A DNA stretch of 64,000 nt from an uncultured archaeon (GCA_963782915.1 CAWALK010000011.1:64001-128000); one strand, 5' to 3'. Numbered from the stretch's first letter, positions 3,075 through 61,221 are shown. The notes: generated from the letters alone by a model not told the origin. Made by a program: numbers and translations.

Positions 3075-3415
3075 AAGCTTTCGCTTGCCCGTTGGAGCAA
3101 CTTTTTAGCCCAAAATTCAATATTGCGTAGCACTTTTGTGCTTGATTACTGGATATATGTTTGGAGTTGTTTTAGATTTATATTTAATTGCTTTTATACT
3201 TTTCAATGCAGTGGATAACATGCTCGGTTAAGTTTGTGATGGGCAGAACAAAGTTAGGTAGGTGTATGAGGGCATCTTTGTGTTTACCGTAGATTAGGAT
3301 TTGGGGCGGTTTGTTTTTTTAGTAGTCGATAATGGCAGGATCCCTTTACTCATCAGCTACGTGTGGGCTTGGTATGACAGTTTAGGGAGGGTTAGCTGCG
3401 ATTTTTTACTATAGG

Positions 3416-11049: not shown

Positions 11050-11058
11050 GAAGTTAAT

Positions 11059-12939: not shown

Positions 12940-13274
12940 CCGATGCGGAGGTTGTTTGCGCTTCCGTCTTTGAATAGCCGTTGACCGTCACATTTCTTGT
13001 GGGCACTTTGCGTGTAGTACGTTTCTTGTTGGCGCTTACGGTTAACCTTACGCCTAAAATGTAAAGAAAAATGGTTTTGCGATTAAATTCACGAGTCCTG
13101 AAAAGGTTCAATTCTCAGCCGCAGCTCCAATGCTTCAACTTAATAACAAGCCGCTATCCATAACCAAACGGTTCAACAACGGCTGTCAATAGCTGCCCTT
13201 AACTGGGTTATTATACAATCAAACGTGCTCTAAAAGCTAATTAGCATCAAACTGTAACTACGTATTCCCGCAGA

Positions 13275-14876
13275 GTGCATAGCATGAACGCTGATGGCCA
13301 GAATTTCCGCGATTCAATAATCGAATTTTTACCCGACGCCACGTTTGTCATAGACTTAAACGGCAAAATCATAATGTGGAATAGCGCAATGGAAATGTTA
13401 ACCAGCATTCCCCGAGACGCCATGCTCGGCAAAGGAGATTACGAATACGCCCTCCCATTCTACAAACAACGCAAACCAATGCTGGCTAACCTAATTTTCA
13501 TGCCTGAAGCGGACATAGAAAAGAAGTATGACACAGTTGAGCGAATTGGCGACACTCTTGTTGTCGAAATTTTTATCCCAGACTTTCGGCAGGGCGGTGC
13601 GTATCTCTGGGCTAAAGCAAGCCCCCTATACAATTCAGAAGGGGAAATCGTCGGCGCCATCGAAACAATCCGAGACATCACCGACCGAAAACGGGCAGAA
13701 CAAGAGATTATCCAGTCACGCCGCAGCCTCGCAGACATCCTTAGTTTCCTTCCCGACGCTACGTTTGTCATCGATTTAGAAGGCAAAATCATAGCGTGGA
13801 ACAGCGCAATGGAGATGTTAACCAGTGTTCCAGCAGACTCCATGGTCGGTAAAGGTAACTACGAGTACGCGCTTCCATTCTACAAACAGCGTCGTCCAAT
13901 GTTGGCAGACTTAATTTTCATGCCTGAAAACGAGTTAGAAAACAAATATAACACCGTTGAACGCGTCGGGGACACTCTTGTTGTCGATGTCTTTATTCCC
14001 GACTTTAAAGCAAGCGGCGCATACTTCTGGGCTAAAGCAAGCCCCCTGTACAATTCACAAGGTGAAATCGTCGGCGCCATCGAAACAATCCGAGACATCA
14101 CCGAACGCCGCGAAATGGAAGGCCGACTTGCCAAATCAAATGCCGAGCTCCAGATTGCTGCAGAAATACAGAAAAGCTTCCTACCTGAAACGATCCCTCA
14201 AATCCCCGGACTTGAGGTTGCCGCTCGGAACGTCATGGCAAAAGAGGTCGGAGGAGACTTCTTCGACGTAATCCCGTATGAGATTATGTCCCTTGAAAAG
14301 GGCACACATGGATTACTCGTTGCAGATGTCTCCGGAAAAGGCGTGCCTGCAGCCCTCTTTATGGCTTTATCAAGGATTGTGGTTCGAGTGAACGCACTTT
14401 GGCATCACGACCCGGCGAAAGTAATCTACCACTCAAACAACACTATTACGCAGGATTCAAAGTCCGGCATGTTTGTAACCCTGTTTTTCGGCATGTTAAA
14501 TGAGAAAGACCGAACCTTTACCTACGTAAACGCCGGTCACAACCCTCCACTGATATTCCGAAGCCATGATGGAACAGTTGAGAAGCTCCTCCCTACTGGA
14601 ATATGCCTGGGCGTGATTGAGAACGAGGAATATGAATCCCGAACAGTGACGATACAAAAAGGCGATGTACTCATTATGTATACTGATGGAGTTACAGAGT
14701 CAATAAATACCAAAGAAGAGTTGTTCGGGGAAAATCGACTCATCGATATCGGACGGAGCAATGCTCATCTTTCTGCACAGGGGATCCTCGAGCAGATTTT
14801 ATCCAGCGTAAAGGAGTTCTCTAAGGATATGCCCCAGTTTGATGACATCACTCTATTGGTCGTTAAGGGAACGTAA
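13275..14876 (+). CDS. PAS-PAS-PP2C (SpoIIE/RsbU-like) serine phosphatase
   Basis: Two duplicated PAS domains, then EVGGDFFD, ADVSGKGVPAAL, NAGHNPP, YTDGVTE, DDIT motifs. Confidence 0.92.
   Translation: MHSMNADGQNFRDSIIEFLPDATFVIDLNGKIIMWNSAMEMLTSIPRDAMLGKGDYEYALPFYKQRKPMLANLIFMPEADIEKKYDTVERIGDTLVVEIFIPDFRQGGAYLWAKASPLYNSEGEIVGAIETIRDITDRKRAEQEIIQSRRSLADILSFLPDATFVIDLEGKIIAWNSAMEMLTSVPADSMVGKGNYEYALPFYKQRRPMLADLIFMPENELENKYNTVERVGDTLVVDVFIPDFKASGAYFWAKASPLYNSQGEIVGAIETIRDITERREMEGRLAKSNAELQIAAEIQKSFLPETIPQIPGLEVAARNVMAKEVGGDFFDVIPYEIMSLEKGTHGLLVADVSGKGVPAALFMALSRIVVRVNALWHHDPAKVIYHSNNTITQDSKSGMFVTLFFGMLNEKDRTFTYVNAGHNPPLIFRSHDGTVEKLLPTGICLGVIENEEYESRTVTIQKGDVLIMYTDGVTESINTKEELFGENRLIDIGRSNAHLSAQGILEQILSSVKEFSKDMPQFDDITLLVVKGT
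13325..14110 (+). repeat. Intragenic tandem duplication of a PAS domain, 420-bp period
   Basis: For example GAAATCGTCGGCGCCATCGAAACAATCCGAGACATCACCGA occurs at ~13644 and ~14064. Confidence 0.85.
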
Positions 14877-31479: not shown

Positions 31480-32386
31480 TTATCTTAGGACCATTTGAAC
31501 GAATTTTTCCGGATTAAACAGTTCCAAATCCTTGTAAGTCTGCCCAACACCGATGAATAAGATCGGTTTCTGAGTCACATAGGTAACGCTCAATGCTGAG
31601 CCGCCTTTTACGTCTGCATCTACTTTGGTGAGGATGGTTGCGTCTATGCCTACTGCTTTGTTGAATTCTTCGGCTTGCATTACTGCGTCGTTGCCGATGA
31701 GTGAATCCACAGTGAACACCGTCAAATCAGGTTTCACGACACGTTTGACTTTGATGAGTTCATTCATCAAGTTCTGGTTAGTTTGCATGCGTCCGGCGGT
31801 GTCGATTAAAACTATGTTGATGCCGTGTGCTTTAGCATGGTTAACTGCGTCGTACGCGACTGCTGCCGGGTCGCCGCCATAAGTGCTTTTGATGACTCGA
31901 ATACCCAAACGTTTGCCATGCTCTTCAAGCTGCTCGATTGAGCCTGCGCGGTAAGTGTCTGCGCCTGCCAAAATGACTGAGTAGCCTTTGTCCTGGAAGA
32001 ATCGGGCAACTTTGGCGATGGTGGTGGTTTTTCCTGTACCGTTGATACCCAACAAACATCAGTGAGAAGGGTTCTTTTTTCTTGCGTTTCTCATCTGCCT
32101 TCGCCAGCAGATCCACGCGTTCTTTAGTTAACATAACATCCAAGAGGACTTGGCGGAGGTTTTCGTCTACAATTTTTTTGCGGTCGTCCAAGCGTTTAAC
32201 TTGGATGCGGTCTAAGCGTTTTGTGAGGTCGTCGCAGATTTTGTCCGCAACGGGATAAGCCACATCGTTTTCTGCTAGACTCATTTTGAATTCGGATAAA
32301 ATCGGAGTTAAATTTTCAGCTTTAAGTTCGGTTGTTGTAACTTTACTAACTAAACCTTTGAAACCGGACTTTAGCTTCTCAAACAT
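31480..32386 (-). CDS. ftsY: SRP receptor FtsY (frameshift near 32053)
   Basis: MFEKLKSG N-domain, [34 protein letters not shown]. Confidence 0.95.
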
Positions 32387-32395
32387 CGCACTACT

Positions 32396-33748: not shown

Positions 33749-33835
33749 GAATTATCGTCTCCTGATGCGATTAGCGAAGAGTGTCATGCATTCTGCCTAT
33801 TTTAGATTGTGGTTTGTTTAAGTTAAAAAAATTGC

Positions 33836-35109
33836 TTAGAAACCACTTTCTTTGGGCCCAACCGGTAAGGTAACGATGAATGCCGTGCCTTGCCCCACTT
33901 GGCTTTCAAAATGAACTGAGCCGTTTAGTGCTTCAGTGAGCCGTTTAACAACAGCTAAGCCCAATCCTTGCCCTTTTGCTTTGGTGGTGAATAAGGGTTG
34001 GAAGATTTGCGACTTCACATGCTCGGGTATACCTAAACCTGTGTCTTTAATGGAAATCGCTACTTTATTCTTGGCGGGGGCATTTGCAGTTATCGTTAGT
34101 TTGCCGCCTTGGGGCATTGCTTGCTGCGCATTAGATATGAGGTTAACTAGAACCCGTTTTAGGTATAGGGGATCAGCGTTGATTTTTGGCAGGTTATCGG
34201 CTACTTGTATGCTAACTGCAACGTTTTCTGGGATAACGGAGCTTGAGAGAGAATCATGAATGGAACCGGCTAGTTCTATAATCTGGGGTTTTGGCGTTAA
34301 GGGTTTTGTGTAATCCTGAAGGTCCGCTACTATTTTGTTGATGTAGAAAGTTTGCTCTTCTATAAGACCCAATGATTCCTTTACTTCGCCCTTGGCGGAA
34401 GAGTCTGGTAATGAATCAAGTTCTTGCTTGGCAAGATACAATTCGCTGACTATGGATTGGAGAGGGTTACGAATATCATGCCCAACCATGCTTGCCGTTT
34501 GACCAATAGCGGCTAAACGCTCTTTGTCTTGAAGCTGTTTGGTGCGTTCACGAATGGTTGATTCTAGGTTTTGAGTGTACTTTTTGAGGTCTTCTTCCAT
34601 GTGCTTGGATAAATCGGTGGTAACTATGAAAGTGGTTGTTGTATCGTCTGCTTTTATGGAGTTTGCAGATACATAAGCAGGAACTACATCGTGTCCTTTA
34701 CTTGGAATGCGATTTCTTTGGCGACTGCACCTTTCCCTGACCTGCATGCTGCCAAGAGTTTCCTAAAATCCTCCAAGTGTTCTTGGGCAACGACGGATTC
34801 GATATTGCTTCCAATCAGTTTATCGAGAGGAACCTGCACCATTTCAGCAAAGCCTCTGTTGCAGTACAGTATGCTGTTATCATCGCAAAGCATGACTGCG
34901 CCTTCACGCATTTCTTCGATAAGCAATCGGTAAGGGGTCTCGGCACCCGTTAAAGTATAGACTTTTGGGCCTTCAGGTGAAGAAACAACTAAGGCATCGA
35001 CTTCGCCCTGATGAATAGCCCGCAATGTTTCGTTAGCTTCTGCTAGTTGTTCACGTAGCGCTTGGTTTTCGGCTTTCAGAGCTTGGTCTTTTGAGTTTTC
35101 AGCTGTCAT
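33836..35109 (-). CDS. Kai-associated PAS histidine kinase (frameshift near 34695)
   Basis: N-terminus ETLRAIHQGEVDALVV…VYTLTGAETPYRLLIEEMREGA (PAS), then H-box MVGHDIRNPLQ and HATPase GQGLGL. Confidence 0.88.
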
Positions 35110-35113
35110 AAGT

Positions 35114-35467
35114 CTACTTCTTTTTAGCTTCTTTAGGAATGATATCTAACCCTACTAGGATACGATCTTTATTTGACATGTCACCGATGAATTTCCGCAA
35201 AGGTAGGGGAAGTTTTTTGATAAGAGTAGGTGCGGCAATTATCTGTTCGGTTTTAGCGTAATCCGGTTGCTGATAGATATCGATAACTTCGAGTTCACAA
35301 CGCCCCTTTAAGTTTTCTTCACATATTTTCCGTACGTTCTCTATAGCTTTAATTGATTTAGGGGTCATCCCGGTTACATACAAACGCAGAATATACTTTT
35401 CGTTACTCTCTTCTCGTAAGGCTTTCTCGAATTCCTCTGTTACATCAGCGATGTCTTTAGAGCTCAA
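35114..35467 (-). CDS. kaiB: KaiB-family protein (copy 4)
   Basis: YILRLYVTGMTPKS…LEVIDIYQQP…IIAAPTLIKKLPLPLRKFIGDMS. Confidence 0.92.
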   Translation of the reverse strand: MSSKDIADVTEEFEKALREESNEKYILRLYVTGMTPKSIKAIENVRKICEENLKGRCELEVIDIYQQPDYAKTEQIIAAPTLIKKLPLPLRKFIGDMSNKDRILVGLDIIPKEAKKK

Positions 35468-35487
35468 AGGTAGTTACACTCCAGTAA

Positions 35488-35812
35488 TTATTCGTCGTTA
35501 GTCTCCAATTTATGGGGAAGAATATCAAGCCCCACCAAAACCCGTTCAGTATTCGAAAGGTCCCCTATTATTTTTCTAATAGGCTCAGGCAGCTTACGCA
35601 CGAGTGTTGGAATAGCTAAAATTTGGTCACCCTGTGCTAACTTAGGATTCTTAACCAAATCAATAACTTCTATGCGACATCTGCCGTTCAGGTGTTCTTC
35701 GCAGATTTTTTTGAGGTTTGCGAATGCTGCTTGGGATTTAGGGGTTTGACCTGCAACATAGAGGCGTAAATTCCAAAATTCTTCTTATCTTGCTCTTGAC
35801 TTGGTCAGTCAT
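35488..35812 (-). CDS. kaiB: KaiB-family protein (copy 3; frameshift near 35785, absent from the ORF track)
   Basis: Hand translation: MTDQVKSK…[31 protein letters not shown]…[51 protein letters not shown]. Confidence 0.9.
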
Positions 35813-35829
35813 GAAGATATCACCTTTAC

Positions 35830-37573
35830 CTATGTTTTTTCTTCTCTTAAGCTTTTTTCATCCGCTTTTCGTGCCCGTGACATTTCTTGGCGATTTTCCG
35901 TTAGTGTCTTTTCTTTTTGTTTCTCTTGGAGGATTGCTTTCTTTATTTCGTCGGCTTTAGCTTCGAACTCTGCCTGTAGAGCGGCAATTTGGGATTCGGT
36001 TACTTTGCGTTTTCTCTCAAGTTCACGTTGAAGTCGTTCGGTTTCTTCTTTGCGGTTTTCTTCTTCGGCTTTCTCTTTTGATTCTTGGGCAAACCTTGCG
36101 GTACCAGTTAGCACTCCAGCGGGTCCAGTGTAAACGTTGACGATGTCTATGCCTTTACTGGTCAATAGGAACTCGCGGATTTGGTTCGAATGGGGCATAC
36201 CTCTTGATTTGAGGACATAGATGCCTCGGTTGCGTTCCCCTTGAATTTCTATATCGCGTAATAGTATCCATGTGTCCATGATTGAGGATACTTCCGCTTC
36301 AGTGCTTTCCAAGCCATGCAACATGTGTTAAATTGGTAAATACTGCAGTGATTTGTTTGCTCTTCAAATGGTCAATTAATCTTGTCAGCATAGAGCGGAC
36401 ATCGTCTGGTTCACCGATGCTAATCAAATTGCTTATTGGGTCAACGATAACAACGCTTGGCTTAAAATCATCGATATCCCGTTGCATAGTTACCAAATGT
36501 GTTTCAAGACCGTAGAGGCTTGCTCGTGCGGCGCGAATTTTTAGAAGCCCCTTTTCCACCCATTGCTTTAGGTTAATGCCTATGGACTGCATGTTTCTCA
36601 TGATTTGCTCGGGTGACTCTTCAAATGCGAAGATAAGGCAGCGTTCTCCGCGTTGGCATGTGGCGTTTGCAAAGGTAGCGGATATTGTACTCTTTCCTGT
36701 GCCGGCGGTTCCTGAAATCAGTATGCTGCTGCCACGGTAGAATCCTTTGCCGTCAAGCATTGCATCCAACCTTGGAATCCCTGTTGGAACCCTCTCGCTT
36801 GAAACTTGATAATCCAGATTCAGCGAGGTTATGGGCATTATGGAGATGCCTTTTTCGTCGATTATGAAGGGGTACTCATTTGTGCCATGCATTGAACCGC
36901 GGTATTTTACGACACGCAGGCGTCGTGTTGAGATTTGACCTGTTACTCTGTGGTCTAAGAGAATAACGCAGTCTGACACATATTCTTCTAAGCCGTAACG
37001 GGTTAATTCGTTGGTGCCCCGTTCAGCAGTTATTATTGCAGTTACACCTTTGTCTTTGAGCCATCGAAATAGCCTGCGTAACTCCGCACGCAGAATAGCT
37101 TGGTTACTTAATCCAGCGAAAAGTGATTCTATGGTATCCAAAACGACTCTTTTGGCGCCGATAGAATCAATCGCGTAGTTGAGGCGAATGAATAATCCTT
37201 CAAGGTCATATTCGCCTGTTTCCTCAATTTCATTGCGTTCAACACGGACAAAATCAATCAGTAGCTTCTTTTGTTCTATGAGTTGGTTAACATCAAAACC
37301 TAATGAGGCAACGTTTTTGGCTAATTCGTCAGGGGTTTCTTCAAAAGCCATGAAAACGCCTGGCTCGTTAAACATGGTTGCGCCACGTACAAGGAACTCC
37401 ATGGACATCAAGGTTTTGCCGCTTCCAGCGCCACCGGCAATCAAGGTTGGGCGTCCTTTGGGTAATCCCCCGAATGTTATGTCGTCTAATCCGCGGATTC
37501 CAGTGGGGGCTTTCGCCAGTTCTTTTAGAGTATTTCCTTGGCTTTTTGGCAAGTTAACATTCAACTCCATCAA
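35830..37573 (-). CDS. kaiC: Double-domain KaiC with C-terminal coiled-coil tail (frameshift near 36310)
   Basis: CI Walker A GGAGSGKT plus FEE; CII GTAGTGKS plus FEES; KYRGS and KSRG arginine fingers; phospho-site region EVSSIMDTW; long charged helical tail. Confidence 0.93.
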
Positions 37574-37658
37574 ACGAGCAAGCTATTAAACTTAAGAAAG
37601 CATTCACTAAAAAAGTTTTGTACATTACATAAAAGGCGTCAAAGCTTCTCATGAACAA

Positions 37659-37940
37659 TCACTTCAGACCAAGTTTCAATATAACATTTTGGGTGTTGGA
37701 TAAATCACCTATCAAAACCTTTGCGGGCAACGGATTTCTTCTGATGACAGTGGGAATGGAAACGATTTGGTTTTCTACTGCCAATTTGGGGTTTTTAAGT
37801 AAATCAGTTACTTGTATGGACCATTTATTCCTCAAGTATTTTTCACAAAGAGCCCTCAAGTTTTGGTAGGCAAATTCTGTTTTGGGGGTTCGACCGGCAA
37901 CGTATAGATCGAACTTCCAAACAACTGTTTGGTCTGCCAA
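37659..37940 (-). CDS. kaiB: KaiB-family protein (copy 2)
   Basis: FDLYVAGRTPKT…DLLKNPKLAVENQIVSIPTVIRRNPLPAKVLIGDLS. Confidence 0.88.
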   Translation of the reverse strand: MADQTVVWKFDLYVAGRTPKTEFAYQNLRALCEKYLRNKWSIQVTDLLKNPKLAVENQIVSIPTVIRRNPLPAKVLIGDLSNTQNVILKLGLK

Positions 37941-38047
37941 TCAAAGTCGCCGTTAGAATTATTCGATTGTTTAAGCAGATAAGACTTTGCATAAACCGCA
38001 GAAAGCAAGTGCTAATAGTAGAATAGAGAAATGGTTAACGGGATTTG

Positions 38048-38485
38048 TTATCGCGTTAAAAGTGGGTATAAACTTAAATTAGCCTCAAATTGAGCGGCGG
38101 TGAACTCTCTAAATTTTAAGCTTAAGCCTGTCAATGAGACGCTTTTCGCACCTTTATTAAACCCAGGAATCAGGGGAACGCTTGGAAAATCGAGTCTTGC
38201 AAGGACCACTTCAGTTTTTGAAAGGTCACCGATGACTACTCTTTTGGGAGAAGGCGACGTTTTTATCACCGTCGGGCAAGCAGTAATGTTATCGCTAAGG
38301 GCCAAACTAGGGTTTCTGCCTAAATCCATTACCTCAATACGGTATTGCCCACTTAAGCGTTCATCGCATACTTTCTTTAGATTTGAATAAGCTGTGAGAG
38401 CCCTTTGGCTTTCTCCGCAGACGTACAGCTTAAAAACCCATATACCGGTGATTAAACTGCCAGAAATTTCGGTGTTCTTAATCAT
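38048..38485 (-). CDS. kaiB: KaiB-family protein (copy 1, divergent, C-terminal extension)
   Basis: FKLYVCGESQRA…YRIEVMDLGRNPSLALSDNITACPTVIKTSPSPKRVVIGDLS. Confidence 0.85.
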   Translation of the reverse strand: MIKNTEISGSLITGIWVFKLYVCGESQRALTAYSNLKKVCDERLSGQYRIEVMDLGRNPSLALSDNITACPTVIKTSPSPKRVVIGDLSKTEVVLARLDFPSVPLIPGFNKGAKSVSLTGLSLKFREFTAAQFEANLSLYPLLTR

Positions 38486-38832
38486 TGTACGCCTTCTTTT
38501 CCTTACCGATAGGAGCTAGCGTCAGTATTTAGCTGATATCAGCATAGGGTATCTTTAGAATAATGCCTAATAAGAATTGTCTTTACAATGGCTAACTCGC
38601 CGCTGTGGGGCAATCGTACGGTTTCGGGCGGTTATTTTCGCGTAACCTAATGGAGGGAGATAGCAGCTGAAATGCCAGGTGGTTTATGGCTCTACTACAG
38701 CACATGAATTGCAGACAAAACTGCTACAAATGCATAGGCAAAACACAGCTACACCCAACAAACGCCCAACAAAAACAACCAACCCCCCACACATACAAAC
38801 AAACCCAACCCAAAAACCCACAAATGCTTTTC

Positions 38833-38909
38833 TATACATAGAGGAAGAGGGGTCCCTGTGCAGAGCAACAAAATCGCTGCCAAGCCACTCTTTACCGTTT
38901 AAAGCAGGG
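38833..38909 (+). repeat. Dispersed intergenic motif, copy 3
   Basis: TATACATAGAGGAAGAGGGGTCCCTGTGCAGAGCAACA…TTTAAAGCAGGG. Confidence 0.6.
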
Positions 38910-38979
38910 TTGAGCCGCCAATGACCATATCTCTAGATTACCCATTAATGGATGCTTCTGGCAGGTGAATTCCATAGTA

Positions 38980-39150
38980 AGCAATCCAACATACACCTAC
39001 AACTACAAACAACCAAACCAACATAGTTGTGGCAAAAAAACCTTGCCGCCCACAACCCAAATACGCAATAAAAAAGCCCCAAACCAAAAAAGCAACCCAA
39101 AACACAACCCAAACTTGTAGAAACCTACGCCACCCACAACCACACAAAGA
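38980..39150 (+). repeat. ~170-bp C/A-rich non-coding repeat, copy A
   Basis: Shares AAAAAGCCCCAAACCAAAAAAGCAACCCAAAACACAACCCAAACT and AGAAACCTACGCCACCCACAACCACACAAA with the reverse complement of 49805-49975. Confidence 0.8.
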
Positions 39151-39369
39151 GAAAAAGCATTTCGCCCTTAATAGAAAATCAAAAAATTAAACTGACCTGC
39201 TTGCGGCTTGCCCCACAACCAACAAGCAACCAAAACCAAACGCCAAACCCACAAACCATTGGTTATAGAAACGCAAAAGGGATTCAGGGCAACAACAACT
39301 ATAGAAAAGCAAAACAGCTAAGAATAAAGAATCAAAAAATTAAACTTAAAAAATGAAAAGAAAAGAATC

Positions 39370-44174: not shown

Positions 44175-45075
44175 CTACGCCTGTTTTTGCGACAACTCAT
44201 CTTTTAACCGCAGAAGCGCCCTATCTAAGGTGAGCGGTTTGCAGTTTAGAGTTCGCTGAGCCAGTGAAGTATCAAGCGAGGAATCCATCGGGCGCTTAGC
44301 GGGCAAGGTGAACTGGGCAGATGTGACCTTATCAATCAAACTCTTATCTAAGTCAAATGCGTCAGCGATTTTGGTTGCAAACTCAAAACGGCTAACCCGA
44401 GTAGCACCACAAGTATGGTAAACACCAGTTCAAGCGGCGCTCAATAACTTCCAAGGTCATCTCAGCCAAATTAGTATTCAACGTAGGCGTATTCCATTGG
44501 TCCGTAATGATTTTAACGCGTTCGCCCTTGCGCAGGGTTTCGATTAGCCAGAGAGCAAAATTTACTTTCCCAGCCGCAGGAGTCGAACCATAAATCACGC
44601 TGGGCCGACCGATGAAAAAATCCGATTCAGCCATGTTCTGCATAACGACTGTTTCAGCTTCGAGCTTTGTGATTCCATAGTAGTTGATGGGTTCAGGCGA
44701 GTCTGATTCTACATAGCAGCCTTTTTCGCCGCTAAACACGTAATCGGTTGAAATGTAAACAAGAAATGACCCCGCATTTTTTGAGGCTTCAACGATGTTT
44801 TTTGTGCCCTCAACGTTAACTCTCCAAGCAAGCTCTTTGTTCATCTCACATTTATCCACATCTGTGAGAGTCGCCGCATGAACCACAACATCGGGTTTTA
44901 TTGTGCGGAATGCTTCGTCAACCTGTGCTTTACCGGCAATATCCAATTTAACAAAGTTGCCATAAATCGATAAGCCTTGGATGTCGGAAGAGTAAACCTC
45001 GATGCCCCTATCTAACGCATATTTGGCAAGCTTTGACCCATAAAGGCCACTTGCACCCGTGATGAGAAGCTTCAA
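44175..45075 (-). CDS. rfbD: dTDP-4-dehydrorhamnose reductase (frameshift near 44430)
   Basis: ITGASGLYG, TDVDKCE, ISTDYVFSG, YGITK; tail read by hand AKRPMDSSLD. Confidence 0.92.
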
Positions 45076-46076
45076 TGAGTACCCAACTTCCAAGGTGTAG
45101 GATGCAAAATCACGTCAGTCGCAAAGGGCGTCCACCAATGCTCATTATTTAGATACCACTGCACCGTTGACTCCAATGCCTCTTCGAAGCTGGCTTTAGG
45201 AGCCCAACCCAACTCACTACGCAACTTAGTTGAATCTAAACTGTAGCGGGTATCATGCCCCGGCCTGTCCTCAACAAACGTAATCAAATCCTCAGGCTTC
45301 TTCAGTAATCCAATGATTTTTTTAACGATATCTATGTTAGTTTTTTCGTTGCCTGCTGAGACATTATAGATTTCGCCGGGTTTGCCCTTCTCAAGCACGG
45401 TATGTATTGCTTCACAGTGGTCGGCAACGTATATCCAGTCACGGATGTTTGTGCCTTTGCCATAGATGGGAATGGGCAAATCACGCAGGCCACGAATAAC
45501 AGTTTTAGGAATTAGTTTTTCAGGAAGTTGATAGGGCCCAAAATTGTTAGTGCAGCGGGTAATGGAGACGTTTAATCCAAACGTTCTGTGGTAGGATAAC
45601 ACGAACATGTCGGCTGCTGCTTTAGATGCAGAGTAAGGATTAGATGGTCTAGGGGGGGTTTCTTCTGTAAAGGAGCCTTCTATTGCTTCGCCGTAGACTT
45701 CGTCGGTGGAAACCTGCAAGAGGCGGGCTTTGTGGTTGTGTCTGCGTATGGCTTCTAGAATTGTGAAGGTGCCCAAGGTGTTGTTCTGCAGAAACACGTT
45801 AGGGTCGGCGATGCTTCGATCCACATGTGTTTCTGCGGCTATGTTTACGACTGCATCCACTTGATGAATCAGCCTGTTCATCAGTTGGGGGTTGCAGATG
45901 TCGCCTTTGATGAAGGTATAGCGTTTATCATTCTCAATATCATGCAGATTAGCCGGGTTAGCACCAATGCCTACTTTGTCAACGTTAATCAATTCATAGT
46001 CAGGGTGCTTTGCAAGAATAAACCTGCAAAAGTTGCTTCCGATGAAACCTAAACCGCCAGTAACTAACACTTTCAT
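45072..46076 (-). CDS. rfbB: dTDP-glucose 4,6-dehydratase
   Basis: GGLGFIGSNF, AAETHVDRSI, STDEVYG, YSASK, DRPGHD. Confidence 0.95.
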   Translation of the reverse strand: MKVLVTGGLGFIGSNFCRFILAKHPDYELINVDKVGIGANPANLHDIENDKRYTFIKGDICNPQLMNRLIHQVDAVVNIAAETHVDRSIADPNVFLQNNTLGTFTILEAIRRHNHKARLLQVSTDEVYGEAIEGSFTEETPPRPSNPYSASKAAADMFVLSYHRTFGLNVSITRCTNNFGPYQLPEKLIPKTVIRGLRDLPIPIYGKGTNIRDWIYVADHCEAIHTVLEKGKPGEIYNVSAGNEKTNIDIVKKIIGLLKKPEDLITFVEDRPGHDTRYSLDSTKLRSELGWAPKASFEEALESTVQWYLNNEHWWTPFATDVILHPTPWKLGTH

Positions 46077-48109: not shown

Positions 48110-49688
48110 TTATTTAGATTTAGGCATTAATTTCTCAAGCAAGTTAAGAATAGCAGTTAAGGGTTTACGTAATGGACCTAGGCCGCCTACAATCTCGCGT
48201 ACATTGGCTAAGTCGTTTCTGTTTATGGTTCTTGTAACTATTATTGCAAGCAAGAATATGATTACAAATGCAACTACGCCGATGATTAAGCGTATTGGGC
48301 TGCTAAATGGCACCCAAGATACGACAAGATACGTTAAAACGCCGGCTATTGCTGAGGAGATTAAGATTTTTGCGGATGCAACCCAATCCAGTGATACGCC
48401 ATAGCGTTTCTTTATGAAGGCTATGCTCCATAGTAAACTTGGGACGCCGACAATTATTGTTGTGACGATTAATCCTATGATGCCGAATTGTGAAGTTAGG
48501 ATAAAGCTTAAGGGAAAGCCTATGGCGACAGGTTAGGATGGCGAGTTTTAGGTTGAATTTTGTGTCTCCTTGACTGTTGATTAGGTTGCCAGTGCTGAGG
48601 TTTCCGAGGGCTGAGAATAAGTAAGTAATCGATAGTAAGGCAAGGAATAGTGGTGCTTGGGTGTAATCGGTCTTTGAATATGGTGCTGATTGCTGGTTGA
48701 GCTAGCGCCATGATCATTACTGAGACGGGTACGACTAAGAGCGCTGCGTACTTGACTGAGTATTGGAAAACGCTTTTGAGGACTGGTTGCGTCTTTTCGG
48801 TAATCGAGTTTTGAGAAGGCTGGTAGCAGCATTGTTGTTACGGGTGTGGCGAAGAATGTTATGAGGACTACGAAGTTTGTGGCGACTGAGTAGTTGCCGA
48901 TTATGCTGTTTTCGGTGATAAAGATTGCCATGATGTAGCCGTAGAATTGGGTTAGAAAGCCGGTTATGATGGCGCCGATGGATATGGGTAAGCCGTATTT
49001 TAGCATGGTTTTTATGGTTTTTATTATTGGGAGTTTGCCGTCTGTGGATTTTGGTAGGGATCGGTACATTGTGTATACGAGTAGGATGCCGGTTATGCCT
49101 GCTACTATGAGGGCGATGGAGAATCCGGTTACTGCGCCTAGGGTTCCTAAGCCTAGTAAGTACGAGGCCGATTATTAGGCCTGTTTTTACTATGGATTGG
49201 ATTATGAGCATGATGCTGTTTAGGTGCATTCTTTCTAGGCCTGTGAAGGCGGCGGATGCAGTGTTGACGAGTGCGCCTGTTAGTATGAATAGGGATGTTA
49301 TTTGGATGAGTTGGGCTATTTCTGGGCGTTGGAAGATGTCTGCTAGGAAGCCGGAGATGGCTATGGAGAAGAGGGTTAGGGCGAGTCCGAGGATTAGTTC
49401 GAAGGCTAAGCCGGAGACGAGTATGCTTCTGATTTTTTCTGTGTCGTTTTGGTGGTTGTATTGGGCGCTGTATTTGACCATGGCTGTGGTGATGCCCCAG
49501 TCTCTGAAGGTGGCGATGAGGTTGGGTGCGCCTATGGCGATTGTGTAGAGGCCCATGTTGTCTGCGCCTAGGAATATTGCGATGAGGATGGTGCCGATGG
49601 ATGAGATGACTGTGGATAGGACGAGTCCCCAGAGTAGGTGGAAGCCGCCTTTTGCTGATACTTTGGCCATTTCGGATGCGTTTGCCAT
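48110..49688 (-). CDS. Oligosaccharide flippase (Wzx/MATE-like), several frameshifts
   Basis: AKGGFHLLWG…DWGITTAMVKY…IGNYSVA…LLPAFSKL; multi-TM pieces in successive frames; adjacent to rfb genes. Confidence 0.85.
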
Positions 49689-49804
49689 GGTCTTTCTTCT
49701 TTGTTGTTTTATTTGTTGGTGGTGTGGTGGTGTTTATCGGTTGTGGTTTGGGTGTGTTGTTTGGTGGGTGTGGGGGGTCGGTTAGGTTTTGGGGTGTGGT
49801 TTTT

Positions 49805-49975: not shown

Positions 49976-50062
49976 TTTTTGGGTGTAGAGTATTTGGCGG
50001 TTGGACTTGGTTTGCTCTAATTGTGGGCTAAATAGTAGTGGGGTAAATGGAAAGTAGGTGAG

Positions 50063-50900
<838 letters not shown>

Positions 50901-51091
50901 AAAAAAAGAAGTAATACCATATTCGAAATAAAATCCATCAAGCACATGAGGATTTAGGGCTAATAAAAAAATAGCGCCCGCCATCACCGCTTTAACTCTA
51001 AAAGGCGTTGAATAGTTTGCAAAGGTTTTCGCTTGTTCGATAGTTGCCGTTTGTGAGTGTTTGTCGGAAAAAAAAGCAGTATATTCTGTTT

Positions 51092-51597
51092 TTATTCCAT
51101 GTTGATATTGCCGTTATCATCTATTCGGGCTACTTCCCAAGTGTATTTGTAAGTAGTCAACTGCTTTTTTGATTTGTTTTCTGATTGGAGAGAGCGTTGC
51201 GCATTGTTCTCTGGCTAAGAGAAGTATCTCGCTGATTTCCTCTTCGTTTGCCATACCGTTGAATGCGATGAAGTCAATTGGATTGAAAATAGGTTTGATG
51301 TCGAAGGGATTGATTTTTAGCTTCTTTAGCGAGGGGCATATTACTTTGTAGAATGCCCTTTCAGCTTCTTTACGGCCTTTTTCTACAGCTTCTTGCCTTA
51401 GTTTCTGTGCTTTTTCTTGAAACTCTTTTTCCTTGGCGGCTAGTTTTTTGTGATTCATTGTCGTATTCGTCGAGCCAAGTTTTTTCGGCTTTAGCTTTTG
51501 ATTTTAAGCGTAAGTCTGAGACTCTTTTTATTTCGCCGCAACAGGGGCAAATTACGAGTACTTTTCTGAAGAGTTGGTATTCTTCAAAGGCGCTCAT
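51092..51597 (-). CDS. Holliday-junction-resolvase-like (Endonuc_Holl) protein, catalytically degenerate; frameshifts
   Basis: CPCC zinc knuckle, coiled coil, IFNPIDFIAFNG, but ILLLARE where ExK is expected. Confidence 0.7.
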
Positions 51598-52077
51598 TTA
51601 TTTGAACACTCCATACGATACTTTGTGGTCTTGGATTGCGTCTCGGATGGATTTCTGGTGACCGTTTAGTCGTGCTGCTCCGCTTTTGACTTCAACGAAG
51701 CTTAAGGAATCCACTTTTCCGTTTGATAAGCCGTTGAATATTAGCATGTCTATGGGGTCACCTAATACTTTGGTGTCCGGTACAATCCATTTGAAGTCTT
51801 TTGCTACTGGCAAGACTTTTTCTAAGTTTTTACCAATGTTTACGGCGGTAGCTGTTTTTTGGGCTTTTTCAGTTGCTAACTTAAAGTTTTTTTCTAATTC
51901 TTTAGCTCGGTCAGTAATTGATTGTTTAAGTTCTTCTTGTTTTTTCAAGGCTTCTTTTGGAAAGGGTTTAGTTCCGTCAAAAAGGATAGCGTCGGCTATT
52001 CTGAATTCTTCGCCACAAGGGCATTCAGCAAAAAGTTCAGAAGCTTTTAGATTTTTCATTAATTCACTAGTTTTCAT
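51598..52077 (-). CDS. Holliday-junction-resolvase-like PD-(D/E)xK nuclease
   Basis: IGKNLEKVLP…LGDPIDMLIFNG…FVEVKSGAARLNGHQKSIRDAI. Confidence 0.85.
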   Translation of the reverse strand: MKTSELMKNLKASELFAECPCGEEFRIADAILFDGTKPFPKEALKKQEELKQSITDRAKELEKNFKLATEKAQKTATAVNIGKNLEKVLPVAKDFKWIVPDTKVLGDPIDMLIFNGLSNGKVDSLSFVEVKSGAARLNGHQKSIRDAIQDHKVSYGVFK

Positions 52078-52403
52078 TGCTTGCTTCCCTGATTGGAGCT
52101 ATCTTGGTGGGTTTAGTTTTAAAATTATTGGTAATCCGCTTGTATGAACCAGATCGCTCAGAAATTAGATAGCCAACCCCGTAATTGCTTAAGTGTTAAA
52201 TATAACTAGCCGTCGAAGGCGGTTGTTGGGTGAGAAGCGCCTGTGAGGTGCTAAATTCTGTTTTAGGTTGTAGGTAAATTTTAACACTATTCCAGTGTAG
52301 GATTTAGTGCTTTAGAATGAATAGACTCACCCGTAATCCGTTCAGAAATCAAATAGCCGACTCCGCAATCCCTGCTTTAGTGAGCATTGAGTACATTTTA
52401 GAA

Positions 52404-53846
52404 CTATTTTTTTACTACAATTTGCGGATAACGACAAGCCTTCATAAGATATTCATCAATATACCTTGCGGCTTTTCTCCCTGAACCCATAGCGCTAATA
52501 ACAGTAGCTTCACCGGTCGCAATATCGCCGCCTGCATATATCCCCGTGTGACTTGTTTGAGTTGTTTCATCTTCAGTTATTATGATTCCCCCATCTTTAA
52601 CACCAATACCCTTTGTGAAGCCTTGAACTATAGAGTTAGGCTTTCTTCCGATAGCAACTGCTACAAAATCCACGTCAATAATTTTTTCAGAACTTTCAAC
52701 TGGAATCGGTTTTCGCCGCCCAGAACTATCAGGTTCGCCAAGCGTCATTTGGACGTATTCCATATGTTTAACATGCCCCTCTTCATCAGCAATAAATCGT
52801 GTAGGTAGACTCAAAAATTTGAAGTCTATCCCCTCTTCTTCTGCATTTTCAATTTCTTCCTTTCTTGCAGGTAATTCATCACGAGAGCGACGATAAAAAA
52901 TTGAAACTTTTTCAGTTCCTAATCTTAGAGCCATTCTAGCCGCATCAATAGCCACATTGCCTCCACCTATAACCACCGCCTTCTTTCCCACCGCGATTGT
53001 TTTAAATTCTTGACAGTTATAAAAAAGATCAAGATTCACATACATGAGAAAATCATTTGCGGGATAAATACCTCTAAGATTTTCTCCAGGTATTCCCAGA
53101 GTTTGCGGTATTCCTGCACCTGCTCCTATAAAAACTGCGTCAAATCCCTCTTTAATTAGCGTTTCCGCAGCTGAGATTTTTGCTATCTGTAGATTTGTGT
53201 AAATTTTAACGCCTAAATCTTGGATTCTCTTAACTTCTCTTTTTATGATATACTTAGGTAATCTAAATTCAGGTATTCCATAAGCAAGAACGCCACCAGC
53301 GACAGGTAGGGCTTCAAAAATGACTACTTCATGACCAAATTTTGCTAAATTTGCTGCAACTGTTAGTCCAGATGGTCCTGATCCAATTATGGCTACTTTT
53401 TTTCCTGTGGATAGTGCAGGTCTTATCGAATAATTATCTATCTGTTTATCAGCTTCTAAATCGGCTACAAATCTTTCGAGTCTGCCAATCTGAACTGCAC
53501 AGCTTTTTTTTGCCATTAGACAAGACTTTTGTCATTGTTCTTCTTAAGGACAGATACGGCAACTAATAATCGGAAAACTGCTCTTTTCTTTAATTTTTTT
53601 TAGGGCTTGGTCATATTTTTTTTCTTTGACTAACCTGATAAATCCAGGAACGTTGATACCAACAGGGCAGCCTTTTGAACACTGAGGATTAGAACAAAGA
53701 AGACATCTTGAAGCTTCCTTTTGGGCTTGCTGTTCCGAGTAGCCCAAAGCAACTTCTTCAAAATTACAGATTCTTTTCTGAGCCTGCTGTTTTGGCATAT
53801 CGATGCTATGCCAACGGTCTTGAGCTGCTTTATTCTCTATACTCAT
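52404..53846 (-). CDS. GltD/SudA/NfnB-like NADPH-dependent flavoprotein (frameshift near 53545)
   Basis: NFEEVALGY…EASRCLLCSNPQCSKGCP, CRICP, GSGPSG, YGIPEFRLP, GGGNVAIDAAR, YAGGDIATG. Confidence 0.9.
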
Positions 53847-54262
53847 CCCTAATTTTTTACTCCCAGAGTTTTAGGGTATACTAGTGGTTAAGTTATCATT
53901 ACAATAAAGATTTTTCTATTATTAACTTAATTAGCATGCCATTTTTAAATACGGAGTTTCTTAAAAACCTGAAAAGATGTTTTTTCCTAAGGCTGAGACG
54001 GCGACTTTATTTAAAATACTTTGCCAATTATAAAAAGTTGAATTACCGTTTTAAGGGTGTGATAACTGGTAAGGAAACGGTTTAGGTTCCATGTTAGCCG
54101 TCGCATACAGCAAGCGCAATACTCTAAGAACATCGTCAATTGCCTGGAAAAGGTAAACGGTTTACCGCTCTAAATGGCGCTAGTTATTCGGATAAGATAA
54201 GCGATTAATAAAAAAATTAAGGGAAGCCGCCAAAATGTGGCGCTTCTATTGGATTGGTTAAT

Positions 54263-55142: not shown

Positions 55143-55359
55143 GTTACCCTTTCCTTAGTTTTAATCTCTAAGGGCGCTCTTATGATTCATAAACAAATGT
55201 GACTGTGCATGAACAATAACAGAGCACTCACTTGATCATATGTCACAACAGAACATAGACAGATTCTATCTTTGTGCGTTTTCGCTTTTGCGGTTGTCTG
55301 GCTACAGTCACATACGCTTAAGAACAGTCTACCGCTCTCTAACTATTCAGGTGAAAATA

Positions 55360-55542
55360 ATGAGCAACAAAGAACCCCATAAACCTCACACATTAGGTGC
55401 ACCGTCATCTCAAGAAGTTCCCATAGGTGGAGTTAAACCCAATCAAGTTCCTTGCCCAGACTGCGGCAAAACTTTCAAGACTAACTCGGAAATGGAGAGG
55501 CATCGAGAAACAACGCATCATGAATTAAAAGGTCACGAGTAA
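55360..55542 (+). CDS. C2H2 zinc-finger microprotein
   Basis: CPDCGKTFKTNSEMERHRETTH; GGTGA SD before ATG 55360. Confidence 0.75.
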   Translation: MSNKEPHKPHTLGAPSSQEVPIGGVKPNQVPCPDCGKTFKTNSEMERHRETTHHELKGHE

Positions 55543-55680
55543 AAACCCTGTGCTGGTTGCTTCCAACATGGCCCTTAACGGATCCTAATTTTTTCGGACG
55601 TTTTTTGTGTTTTTTGCATTTTGGCTATTTGGTAAATTGTTTAATAGGTAAGTTGATTGTCTTCTTATGGGTAACAGTCT

Positions 55681-56538
55681 ATGTCTAAAATAGTGATAAC
55701 AAAGGGAACCCTACTTCTTGTGATATTGGTGTCAGCCTTAATTTCAGGAGTCACCGCTGCAAGTATTTCAACCCTAGTTAAAAATTCCCAAAGCTTGCAG
55801 TCGACAACCGGTGCAACAGGTGTCAATGGCACAACAGGTTTAACAGGATCAAGAGGAGAAATAGGCGCAACCGGCCCAACTGGACCTATTGGACCAACGG
55901 GAGCAACTGGTCCCACAGGCGTAAAAGGAGATACAGGCGCTACAGGAACTAACGGTGCAACTTGGCTCACTGGAACAGGCGCACCGCCACCAAGCTTAGG
56001 CACAAATAACGACTTTTATTTCGATACTGCAAGCAGTGATGTATACAACAAGGCTTCCGATGTCTGGGTAAAAGTGTCAAACTTGAGAGGTGCAACCGGT
56101 CTAACAGGAGTTAAAGGTGATACGGGACAGCAAGGTCGACCAGGAGCGACAGTGACTAATTACACAAACATAGGATATGTTGGTATGCTAAGTTATGCTG
56201 GCAGTAACATTGGTAATGTTGCTATAACGGCACCCGTAAACGGTAGCATTCACATAACGTTAACCGGCTATGTTCAGATGTTTAAGAATAATTCTTGCTT
56301 ATTCGGTATTGGTTCAAACCTTGGGCTCACTGATTTAGATGTAACGTATGCTGGAATATCTACCGCAGGTTCAACATCTGAGCAGACGATGTATAGCCTC
56401 ATGTCACAAGCTGTTGTTCCGGTTACAGAGGGTAATACGTATGTGTTTTATGCGTCTGGATATAAGTGGGATTTTGATGACAGTGCGGCCATGACTCTTA
56501 ATAGCGTAAAATTAACAGCCGTGTTTTCAGAACGATAA
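55681..56538 (+). CDS. Collagen-like (Gly-X-Thr) surface protein
   Basis: Signal/TM helix, [16 protein letters not shown] repeats, WLTGTGAP…DFYFDT…DVY motif, beta-sandwich C-terminus. Confidence 0.85.
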
Positions 56539-57863: not shown

Positions 57864-59204
57864 TTATCCTAGGCCTATGGCGGCGAACCTCAATTTATCC
57901 GTGAAGTCTTTTGGGTTGTAGATTCTTCTGCCGTCTATGAGGATGGGTTGCTTCATGAGTGAGAGGAAATCTTGTGGTGTGAGGGTTTTGAATTCGGGCC
58001 ACTCTGTTACGATTATGGCGCAGTCGGCGTCTTTGAGGCATTCCTTGGCTGAAGCAGCGTAGTGTATTGTGTCTTTGAAGATGCTTTTGCTGTGGCGGTG
58101 GCGACGGGGTCATATGCTGTTATGTTTGCGCCTTGCGCCTGCAGCGCCTTTACTATCGGGACCACTCGGGCTTCGCGCATATCATCAGTATCGGGCTTAA
58201 ACGCTAAACCGAGAAGCGCTATTTTTTTATTTTTAAGCGACCCGAGCATCTGCACAGCAAAAGCCACGGCTTTGAGCGGTTGATTCCAGTTAACATGCTC
58301 CACCGAATCCAACAATTCAGGCACATAACCCGATGCCCTACTGCATGCGATGAGGGCTTTGACGTCTTTGGGGAAGCAGCTGCCGCCATAGCCAAGTCCG
58401 GCGTCGAGGAAGAGTGGTCCGATGCGTTTATCCAACCCCATGGCTAAGGCGACGTCTTTGACGTCGGCGCCGGGGATTTTTTCGCATATGTTTGCGATGG
58501 TGTTTATGAAGCTGATTTTGGTTGCGAGCATTGCGTTGCTTGCGTATTTGATGAGTTCCGCCGTGGAGAGGCCTGTGCGGATAATCGGGGGTATGTGGCC
58601 GCTGTAGAAGTCTCGGTAAAGCATTTCCAATTTGTCGCCTGCTTGTTGGTCGTAGGAGCCTATGACTACGCGGTCCGCGTTTAGGGTGTCTTGGAATGCG
58701 GAGCCTTGGCGGAGGAATTCGGGGTTCATGCACAACCCGAAAGTCTACTCCGCAGATTTTGCCGGATTCCCGCTCAAGCAGGGGCTTAACAACATCGAGA
58801 GTGGTTCCGGGCACAACAGTGCTCTTGATAATGGTGACGTGGTAGCTGTTTTTGTGTTTAAGCGCTCTTCCGATGTTAACGGCTGCGGATTGGATGTATT
58901 TGAGGTCGATGCTGCCGTCGTCTTTGCTGGGGGTTCCAACAGCCACATAAGTAAAATCGGATTCAGCAACCGCCCGGTCCGTATCGTTAACGTAACCCAC
59001 AAGATTGCCCTTCTGGATGCTCTCGGTAAGTTTTTCTTGCAGCCCCGGCTCAAAAAACGGTGGAATGCCCTGGTTTATTTTTGAGATTTTTTCTGCATCA
59101 ATATCGCAGGCGACTACGCTGTAGCCTTTGCTTGCTAAACCCACTGCGGTGCATAAACCGACGTATCCAACGCCGATGATCGAAATTTTTGGCTGTTCAT
59201 TCAA
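57864..59204 (-). CDS. ugd: UDP-glucose 6-dehydrogenase (two frameshifts)
   Basis: IGVGYVGL, AVGTP, KSTVVPGT, NPEFLRQG, GYGGSCFPKD, GLAFKPDTDDMRE. Confidence 0.93.
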
Positions 59205-59299
59205 ATCGTAGACCCCAAGCTGACGTCTAATTCGAATTTAGTAATCATATTAAATATATATTGGTTAACATTAACGAAGAACAGATAAGAGGGCGCTTA

Positions 59300-60169: not shown

Positions 60170-60211
60170 TAGATAATATAATCCGTGAAGACCTTGAAAA
60201 GATAAAGAGCG

Positions 60212-61183: not shown

Positions 61184-61221
61184 ATATAACTTTAAATCAA
61201 AATTAACCTTTACACCTAAAG

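Follow-up and report, generated by a model that had tools for sequence, protein, structure and literature searches.

KaiBC systems outside the cyanobacteria are barely understood, and one of them, that of Rhodobacter sphaeroides, has been dissected. The question raised here is what four KaiB proteins may do around a single KaiC in an archaeon. The locus concerned lies on the minus strand at positions 38485-33836 of a 64,000-nucleotide (nt) stretch of DNA from an uncultured archaeon (GCA_963782915.1 CAWALK010000011.1:64001-128000), the whole of which is referred to as the window. A KaiB-type cassette is present there, whose six co-oriented genes follow the order kaiB-kaiB-kaiC-kaiB-kaiB-PAS histidine kinase, as a preliminary description of this DNA had it. 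The absence of kaiA stated in that description also agreed with our search, in which the KaiA family had no match (E ≤ 1e-5) in the 8 cassette pieces or in the 89 other open reading frames (ORFs) of at least 80 amino acids in the window. We propose, with a probability of about 0.6, that the locus would encode a KaiA-less KaiBC hourglass timer of the KaiC2/R. sphaeroides type, to which two upstream KaiBs have been added as extra binding-competent inputs. The engine and the module around it are already known; what is new is a rare upstream add-on of two KaiBs from undescribed families.

The kaiC gene (37573-35830, minus strand), which is read in two frames, encodes a protein of the KaiC2/RsKaiC type (RsKaiC and RsKaiB being the R. 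sphaeroides proteins) with CI and CII domains followed by a charged helical tail of about 90 amino acids. Its N-terminal piece (37573-36299) contained two PF06745 stretches (359.7 bits) and matched NCBIfam NF006799 with 640.9 bits (cut-off 408), while its C-terminal piece (36324-35830) covered profile positions 416-515 of 515. In the translation, each half carried one set of a Walker A motif (GGAGSGKT and GTAGTGKS) and a Glu-Glu pair (AFEET and AFEES). The CI stretch ER.EI.ETGEYDL.GLF, which we take to be the KaiB-binding B-loop, was at least 90% conserved in all 31 aligned KaiCs, that of the window included. Because this stretch is invariant, all four KaiBs would meet the same KaiC surface. 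Among all solved structures, the best matches were three R. sphaeroides entries (8fwi, 8db3 and 8dba; 549-553 bits), followed by another KaiC chain with 355 bits, and S. elongatus-type chains scored about 315-324 bits. The Ser-Ser pair in EVSSIMDTW aligned with S413/S414 of RsKaiC in 8dba and with the Ser-Thr of S. elongatus KaiC. The Ser-Ser pair of 8dba reads Glu-Glu in the aligned phosphomimic 8fwi, the S413E/S414E mutant of RsKaiC (PMC10076222). The tail, with 89 amino acids, 47 charged residues, no Pro or Gly and a weak hydrophobic period of 3.5 residues, aligned with the 8dba extension up to residue 554 of 568. As judged from these alignments, the tail is homologous to the coiled coil of RsKaiC and is predicted to form one, and the window KaiC is of the R. 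sphaeroides (KaiC2) type with two ATPase domains, a Ser-Ser pair and a long tail. The same features had been listed for it before, and the Pfam and NCBIfam matches and the alignment to 8dba bear them out. In print, the kaiC2 subgroup is characterized by two serines, an extended C-terminus and the lack of KaiA (PMC10076222; PMC5520375).

A scan of species-representative genomes with the KaiC N-terminal piece yielded 589 relatives, of which the best 80 (L001-L080; 64-77% identity) were kept, and the six-frame ORFs of these loci were scanned with a hidden Markov model of the four window KaiBs as well as with the pieces of KaiC and of the kinase. The 80 loci were mostly bacterial (Bacteroidota, Acidobacteriota, Planctomycetota, Chloroflexota, Pseudomonadota and others), and six came from Bathyarchaeota/'archaeon' metagenome-assembled genomes (MAGs). 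In the 74 loci whose sequence continued for 900 nt or more past kaiC, two downstream KaiBs were found in 46, one in 27 and none in 1. A PAS-kinase followed the KaiBs in 73 of the 80 loci, the KaiC tail was kept in 72 of the 75 loci with a match to the C-terminal piece, and no conserved gene was found beyond the kinase in the related loci. A PAS kinase adjoining kaiBC is also reported for purple bacteria (PMC10931921). The arrangement kaiC-kaiB(-kaiB)-PAS-kinase is a common and widely transferred module, and the bacterial operons of this kind mentioned in the preliminary description are indeed found across the bacterial loci. Upstream KaiBs present another picture: 76 loci had 400 nt or more of sequence 5' of kaiC, and among these, 74 had no upstream KaiB, two (L005 and L012) had one, and no locus had two. 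Given that 46 of 74 loci carry two KaiBs downstream and 0 of 76 carry two upstream, the core of the cassette is ordinary and its upstream pair is unusual. Four-KaiB operons are thus not common (0/76), and the kinase and the two downstream KaiBs are standard content of the module rather than something special to this locus.

The kinase gene (35109-33836, minus strand) is also read in two frames and encodes a coiled-coil-like N-terminus, one PAS domain (within 35109-34684), HisKA and HATPase_c (both within 34747-33836), as found with Pfam. A SasA-type N-terminal KaiB-like domain is absent from it, as its N-terminus is PAS and PF07689 had no match. The kinase has about 425 amino acids, and the kinases of L004 (9427-11529), L003 and L010 have 160-390 additional residues between their first PAS and HisKA. 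LOV domains are marked by an NCRFLQ-like motif; no such motif was seen in the translation, and an assignment of the kinase PAS as a LOV domain was rejected.

The two downstream KaiBs are KaiB-c (35812-35488, minus strand) and KaiB-d (35467-35114, minus strand; 117 amino acids with a charged N-terminal extension), and the two upstream ones are KaiB-a (38485-38048, minus strand; 145 amino acids) and KaiB-b (37940-37659, minus strand; 93 amino acids). All four exceeded the gathering cut-off of 27 bits of the Pfam KaiB family PF07689, with 73.3, 75.1, 98.3 and 87.1 bits for KaiB-a to KaiB-d, respectively. Their relationships were examined with a quick tree that comprised all 128 KaiB domains and a careful tree (LG+C20) of 69 rows, i.e., the 4 window KaiBs, 23 of 75 D1 and 18 of 47 D2 KaiBs, 15 family A and 7 family B proteins, and the upstream KaiBs L005_U1 and L012_U1; P0026 (family A, N-terminally aberrant) and P0010 (family B, a fragment) were left out of the latter. 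Both trees agreed on the families. KaiB-d belonged to a D2 clade with support of 100/99 in the careful tree and 99 in the quick tree, and KaiB-c was placed among the D1 rows in both trees and was up to 85% identical to the D1 KaiBs of related loci. KaiB-a fell in family A (16 rows; 99/95) and KaiB-b in family B (10 rows; 99/96), and the two families were sisters (98/96). The upstream KaiBs, initially regarded as merely divergent copies, are therefore members of two conserved sister families. Among solved chains, RsKaiB was the closest to both KaiB-a and KaiB-b (76.6 and 77.6 bits, respectively).

Further analyses revealed that double-length KaiBs were D1-then-D2 fusions in all seven cases examined (P0027, P0028, P0175-P0178 and P0187). 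D1 and D2 are two old KaiB paralogue families, and such fusions are evidence of the Rosetta-stone type for their cooperation. The occurrence of D1 and D2 as pairs in operons, sometimes fused, also suggests that in the majority of KaiC2 systems KaiB might work as a hetero-pair. The fused double KaiBs have about 200-250 amino acids, and further matches with two stretches were listed in the profile search. Double-length matches to the family B profile were considered as A-B fusions and rejected, as all five examined were D1-D2.

KaiB-a is a 'long KaiB' in which the KaiB domain is followed by a C-terminal tail of about 45 amino acids. Fifteen homologues with 54-95% identity were found in the database, and because these relatives are 124-147 amino acids long, the tail appears to be real. 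In the family A alignment (A1), C23, C70, P71, P78, P80, A113, S115 and V116 were invariant; C23 lies within YVCG and C70 within ACPT, all three prolines are invariant, and behind a Pro-rich linker the tail carries the motif A-[KR]-S-V-[SG], which in KaiB-a forms part of K-G-A-K-S-V-S. Cys was found at the two columns in 15 of 16 and 16 of 16 family A proteins, compared to 0 of 138 other KaiBs with Cys at both. A thioredoxin-type CxxC at the start of helix 1 was not found in KaiB-a, and the cysteines of the family are C23 and C70. Searching 1.84 billion representatives with the A1 profile gave 6095 KaiB-like matches, of which only two representatives, P0018 (235 bits) and P0019 (214 bits), matched over their full length; family A is rare. 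Partial matches with ACPT were P0032 and P0039, and the next ones were fusions or ordinary KaiBs. KaiB-b has no tail and starts with TTG, and its N-terminus agrees with those of its homologues (47-62% identity). The first search for the latter gave 11 matches and a profile search gave many more, from which 40 further single-domain proteins were taken. Seven of 49 family B proteins are extended at the C-terminus by a stretch with an R-G-T-M-V-S-F-like motif, similar to the tail of family A, and because of these seven the tail was probably ancestral to A and B and lost in KaiB-b.

The upstream KaiBs also differ from the downstream ones at positions that have been linked to fold switching. RsKaiB interconverts slowly between its ground state and a fold-switched form that binds KaiC, and this switch is limited by the prolines P58, P65 and P67, the first of which corresponds to the cis-proline of the thioredoxin fold (PMC11551320). 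Clusters of KaiBs predicted to be fold-switched are enriched in Arg68 and ground-state clusters in Leu, and RsKaiB with I68R/V83D plus a change at N84 was 86% fold-switched (PMC10808063). We located these positions by alignment to chain 8fwj_M, in which residues are numbered two higher than in the paper. Each of the four window KaiBs has all three prolines. At positions 68/83/84, KaiB-c has I/V/G and KaiB-d L/V/G, both like the switcher RsKaiB at 68 and 83, and KaiB-a has K/A/R and KaiB-b A/L/K. Position 68 is hydrophobic in all 79 D1 proteins, K, R or Q in all 16 of family A and polar in all 48 of family B, and position 84 is Gly in 78 of 79 D1 and 43 of 48 D2 proteins and K or R in 16 of 16 family A and 43 of 48 family B proteins. 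These residues suggest that families A and B favor the binding-competent, fold-switched state. The A/B clade thus bears a signature of the fold-switched type, and one of its branches has a Cys pair and a conserved tail in addition.

A KaiC tree with 81 rows placed the window KaiC in a clade of eight (support 99) together with L001, L003, L004, L006, L010, L012 and L005. Six of these seven come from Bathyarchaeota/'archaeon' MAGs, and the seventh, L005, bears the title Sulfotelmatobacter. This placement agrees with the earlier guess that the DNA comes from Bathyarchaeia, and the module is established in a clade of this abundant group of uncultured archaea. The KaiCs of L001, L004 and L006 have the tail (573-582 amino acids), and those of L003, L010, L012 and L005 form a subclade (support 100) in which it was lost, with tail-less KaiCs of 474-488 amino acids. 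The latter (L003:6980-8425, L010:6944-8407, L012:580-2040 and L005:928-2349) have a divergent CII end, and L005 and L012, the sole other loci with an upstream KaiB, are both among them. No remnant of KaiB-a was found 5' of the L012 or L005 KaiB. L005 is a contig of 3165 nt with the title Candidatus Sulfotelmatobacter; its KaiC and KaiBs nest in the Bathyarchaeota clade, and it may be mis-binned. The archaeal KaiC clade as a whole sits among bacterial rows, with which a transfer of the module between domains, in either direction, would fit.

The gene identities, families, rarity and sequence signatures reported above are read from the sequences, and the biochemical steps outlined in this paragraph are all inferred. 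By homology with RsKaiBC (PMC10076222), the window KaiC would autophosphorylate on its Ser-Ser pair without KaiA at high ATP/ADP, and a fold-switched KaiB would bind CI, open the CI interfaces, speed up CI ATP hydrolysis and, once ATP/ADP drops, drive the dephosphorylation of KaiC. The adjoining PAS kinase may pass the state of KaiC on to a response regulator, or feed a signal in. The outcome would be an environmentally reset hourglass or energy-state sensor and not a free-running clock. The D1 and D2 proteins would serve as the switching pair of the standard module, and KaiB-a and KaiB-b would be constitutively binding-competent or differently gated binders on the same CI surface, where they would provide further inputs or define a threshold. 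In the case of KaiB-a, thiol redox, sensed via the Cys pair, may be the input. The earlier suggestion that the upstream KaiBs could tune or compete for the CI ring would fit their binding-competent signature. If the extra KaiBs bind KaiC, the locus would be a natural experiment on how a timer is influenced by KaiB paralogues that differ in their fold equilibria, and it would show how non-photic cues, such as energy and redox, enter such a timer.

Several observations weigh against this proposal. None of the four KaiBs reached the cut-off of 110 bits of the NCBIfam KaiB equivalog NF006798/TIGR02654 (66.1, 61.8, 105.1 and 99.3 bits for KaiB-a to KaiB-d). An upstream KaiB is present in only three of the eight rows of the archaeal clade (the window, L005 and L012), with none in L003, L004, L006 and L010 over several kb and none in L001 within 1.3 kb. 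Because most rows of the clade are without them, the upstream KaiBs are dispensable for the module, and because the KaiCs of L005 and L012 are tail-less, family B is not bound to a coiled-coil KaiC. The closest relative of KaiB-a (95% identity) lies on a contig of 8050 nt; the best match of KaiB-b in the protein database was 62% identical, and none was close enough to pair with this relative. The pairing of a and b may not be conserved, or a kaiB-b gene may be uncalled on the 8050-nt contig, and among the matches listed there was no sign of families A and B on a shared contig. The rule for positions 68 and 84 comes from one paper, one KaiB and AlphaFold-based clusters, and its transfer to families A and B may be doubtful. 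Within D2, the columns of Cys23 and Cys70 showed no association (Fisher p=0.70). Cys23, at the end of strand 1, and Cys70, just before the cis-proline, presumably lie close together in the thioredoxin-like fold, and this putative contact is based on the topology of thioredoxin folds. Finally, the cassette contains three frame breaks per 4.65 kb, which is at the high end of the rate in the window, and the break in kaiC appears to be one extra base outside any homopolymer.

Among the other explanations, the one that survives best is that the upstream KaiBs form a unit of their own without action on this KaiC, with other KaiC-like ATPases or another partner as its target and chance as the cause of its position; we regard it as unlikely, although parts of the layout speak for it. 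The intergenic gaps are 107 nt between kaiB-a and kaiB-b and 85 nt between kaiB-b and kaiC, compared to 17, 20 and 4 nt inside the core. Between kaiB-b and kaiC is a T6 run (37609-37614, minus strand), possibly an archaeal terminator, and immediately 5' of the kaiC start is a motif containing AAGTTTAAT (37572-37599, minus strand; read on the coding strand), possibly a promoter, which recurs twice past rpl31e, at 39326-39353 and 39170-39193 (repeat families D3 and D5). A T7 run (33825-33831, minus strand), another possible terminator, lies right behind the stop codon of the kinase. Given the wide gaps around kaiB-b, the T6 run, the repeated promoter-like motif and the T7 run past the kinase, there are probably two transcription units, kaiB-a/kaiB-b and kaiC through the kinase. 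A scan for sigma-70 promoters and hairpin terminators gave results at the level of shuffled sequence, with models that are ill-suited to an archaeon. Many single-domain KaiC-like ATPases, which the upstream KaiBs could serve instead, were reportedly noted in archaea by Makarova in 2017. Most archaeal relatives of the module are without upstream KaiBs, KaiBs known to bind KaiC have nothing comparable to the tail and Cys pair of family A, and the abundance of single-domain KaiC-like ATPases in archaea is also described in PMC5520375. Against a separate unit, a KaiB of the A/B clade lies directly 5' of a co-oriented two-domain KaiC of the same clade both in the window and, independently, on the contigs of L005 and L012, and the window has no other KaiC-like gene. 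In addition, RsKaiB is the closest solved relative of both upstream KaiBs, and KaiB of Bacteria and Archaea has been found only alongside full-length KaiC (Schmelling 2017, PMC5520375).

The proposed action of the upstream KaiBs on KaiC can be extended further, to an idea that we consider speculative and doubtful. KaiB-a might represent a rare redox-gated KaiB class that stays in the thioredoxin-like fold able to bind KaiC, in which the Cys pair and the tail switch KaiC binding, and the four KaiBs might compete and so integrate ATP/ADP, redox and kinase signals. The tail, with K-G-A-K-S-V-S and an amphipathic stretch, would gate KaiC binding together with the Cys pair beside the switch-limiting proline. 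If this were true, an energy-state hourglass would have become a multi-input integrator in an anaerobic archaeon.

The frame breaks raise the possibility that the cassette is decaying, so that KaiC, one KaiB and the kinase would be real pseudogenes and the locus non-working. The breaks were mapped to 36311-36321 in kaiC, about 35775-35787 at the N-terminus of kaiB-c and 34687-34693 in the kinase gene, in agreement with the indels previously noted at ~36310, ~35785 and ~34695. Searches by tblastn with homologues from related loci showed that each break is one frame change and that the homologue alignments are colinear over the KaiC and kinase breaks. In kaiB-c, only the N-terminus that carries the ATG (35812) is out of frame with the domain, and this gene is the KaiB that was said to be hidden by a frameshift. 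The breaks in kaiB-c and in the kinase gene are at short A or T runs. Decay would be consistent with three breaks in 4.65 kb, with an extra base in kaiC off any homopolymer and with a kinase that is short of a PAS region of about 240 amino acids seen in the L004 kinase. The pieces are, on the other hand, full-length, colinear and 50-85% similar to their homologues, their catalytic motifs are intact, no internal stops or deletions were found besides the single breaks, and KaiB-a, KaiB-b and KaiB-d are intact.

The breaks are, moreover, found throughout the window. A Pfam scan of the window revealed that at least seven genes outside the cassette were also split over adjacent overlapping ORFs, including ftsY (31483-32058/31928-32395), rmlD, an epimerase gene, a DUF3131 gene, a UDP-glucose dehydrogenase gene, a GltD-like gene and a multi-PAS kinase gene (472-3104) in at least five pieces; ftsY and sugar-nucleotide genes are thus among those hit. 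The ftsY gene is generally essential. Because a broken ftsY is implausible in a living genome and the breaks occur all over the window, the three cassette breaks are most likely assembly indel errors rather than decay. Frameshifts had been put forward as a possible sign of a decaying cassette; with breaks spread across the window, ftsY included, they do not serve as such a sign, and we hold decay to be distinctly improbable. The window is apparently from an indel-rich assembly. A polysaccharide synthase gene is also split, the GltD-like gene has two in-frame stops, and the regions with split genes are 472-3104, 31480-32395, 44178-45114, 48113-49733, 52407-53870, 57867-59237, 60206-61038 and 61207-62677.

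A self-sustained archaeal circadian oscillator, with the extra KaiBs standing in for KaiA, appears very improbable: all KaiBC parts are present and KaiB paralogues could supply delay or feedback, but the nearest characterized system, RsKaiBC, is an hourglass that needs a change in ATP/ADP for its reset, no KaiA or KaiA-like match was found in the window, the phosphosites are Ser-Ser and not Ser-Thr, and the sequence carries nothing on free-running rhythms.

The cassette and a spacer of 884 nt sit between rpl31e and eIF6 and break up a run of translation genes in the order S19e, dsDNA-binding protein, L39e, L31e, cassette, eIF6, LX, prefoldin alpha and ftsY. The GC content of the cassette is 0.39-0.47, and its GC and GC3 (GC at third codon positions) are inside the range of the neighboring genes. 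Because the flanks are archaeal and the composition is like that of the neighbors, a misassembly or a very recent arrival is disfavored. We give equally little credence to a bacterial cassette joined to an archaeal contig by misassembly. In favor of it, the closest KaiC relatives are mostly bacterial (64-71% identity) and the eIF6/rpl31e flanks are shared by none of the related loci. Against it, archaeal eIF6 lies within 100 nt and rpl31e about 0.9 kb from the cassette ends, the composition matches that of the neighbors, and the nearest KaiC, D1 and D2 proteins come from Bathyarchaeota contigs that are independent of the window and in part 0.19-1.5 Mb long.

The spacer (38486-39369), which lies between rpl31e and kaiB-a, is non-coding and G+T-rich on the minus strand. 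It contains degenerate repeats of 6-20 nt and a 24-nt motif at 39170-39193 and 39323-39346 (92% identity), and had no Rfam match (E ≤ 1) and no tRNA match. The tRNA and Rfam scans around the cassette likewise gave no matches, and repeat analysis found no flanking direct repeats and no target-site duplication around it. Other signaling genes in the window encode a HAMP-PAS histidine kinase (11050-12936) and a PAS-PAS-SpoIIE/PP2C phosphatase (13245-14873), and the Pfam scan of the window ORFs revealed no response regulator. Elsewhere, a low-GC island (50001-52100; GC 0.294), which is preceded by 2 kb with a GC skew of 0.376, contains two paralogous ORFs (51120-51503 and 51601-52098) of the family 'endonuclease related to archaeal Holliday junction resolvase'. 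A small C2H2 zinc-finger ORF (55213-55539) precedes one with a collagen-like triple-helix repeat (55675-56535), both of which are unusual for an archaeon.

In the literature, KaiB has been reported in only four archaeal genera, and KaiB2-like proteins always occur with KaiC2 (Schmelling 2017, PMC5520375). The papers retrieved by our literature search, including PMC10278575 and PMC10931921 and taken in their available parts, contained nothing on four-KaiB loci, Kai genes of Bathyarchaeia, D1/D2 tandem KaiBs or redox- or cysteine-dependent KaiB. Among known systems, the KaiBC system of R. sphaeroides (8DBA, 8DB3, 8FWI and 8FWJ; PMC10076222) is the best solved relative of the window KaiC and of the upstream KaiBs. 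Both have the Ser-Ser pair, the extension homologous to the coiled coil and a PAS kinase beside kaiBC (PMC10931921), and neither has KaiA. In R. sphaeroides, one KaiB has been studied, whereas the window has four KaiBs of four families, its kinase is downstream, its host is an uncultured archaeon, and dodecamer formation and hourglass kinetics are putative for it. The kaiC2-kaiB-kaiB-PAS-kinase module of Bacteroidota, Acidobacteriota, Planctomycetota and others (L002-L080) has the same core order and spacing, its KaiCs are 64-77% identical to that of the window, and KaiB-c and KaiB-d belong to its D1 and D2 families, respectively; the window differs from it by two upstream KaiBs (0/76 loci) and a single-PAS kinase.

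The KaiBs of Legionella pneumophila (4KUN) and T. elongatus vestitus (KaiB-TV4) are extra or non-canonical KaiBs that are reported to be fixed in the thioredoxin-like, fold-switched state (PMC10808063), and families A and B have the polar residue at 68 and the basic residue at 84 that are linked to this state. The similarity of 4kun to the upstream KaiBs is lower than that of RsKaiB (47-48 vs. 77 bits), and the Cys pair and the tail are features of family A that the available part of PMC10808063 does not mention for 4KUN or KaiB-TV4. The cyanobacterial KaiABC oscillator is set apart by KaiA, of which the window ORFs contain no member. Several KaiB paralogues per genome, as found here, also occur in Synechocystis (KaiB1-3 and KaiC1-3) and in magnetotactic bacteria with 4-6 kaiBC clusters. 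In those organisms, every KaiB has a KaiC partner of its own, in contrast to the window, where four KaiBs are arranged around a single KaiC.

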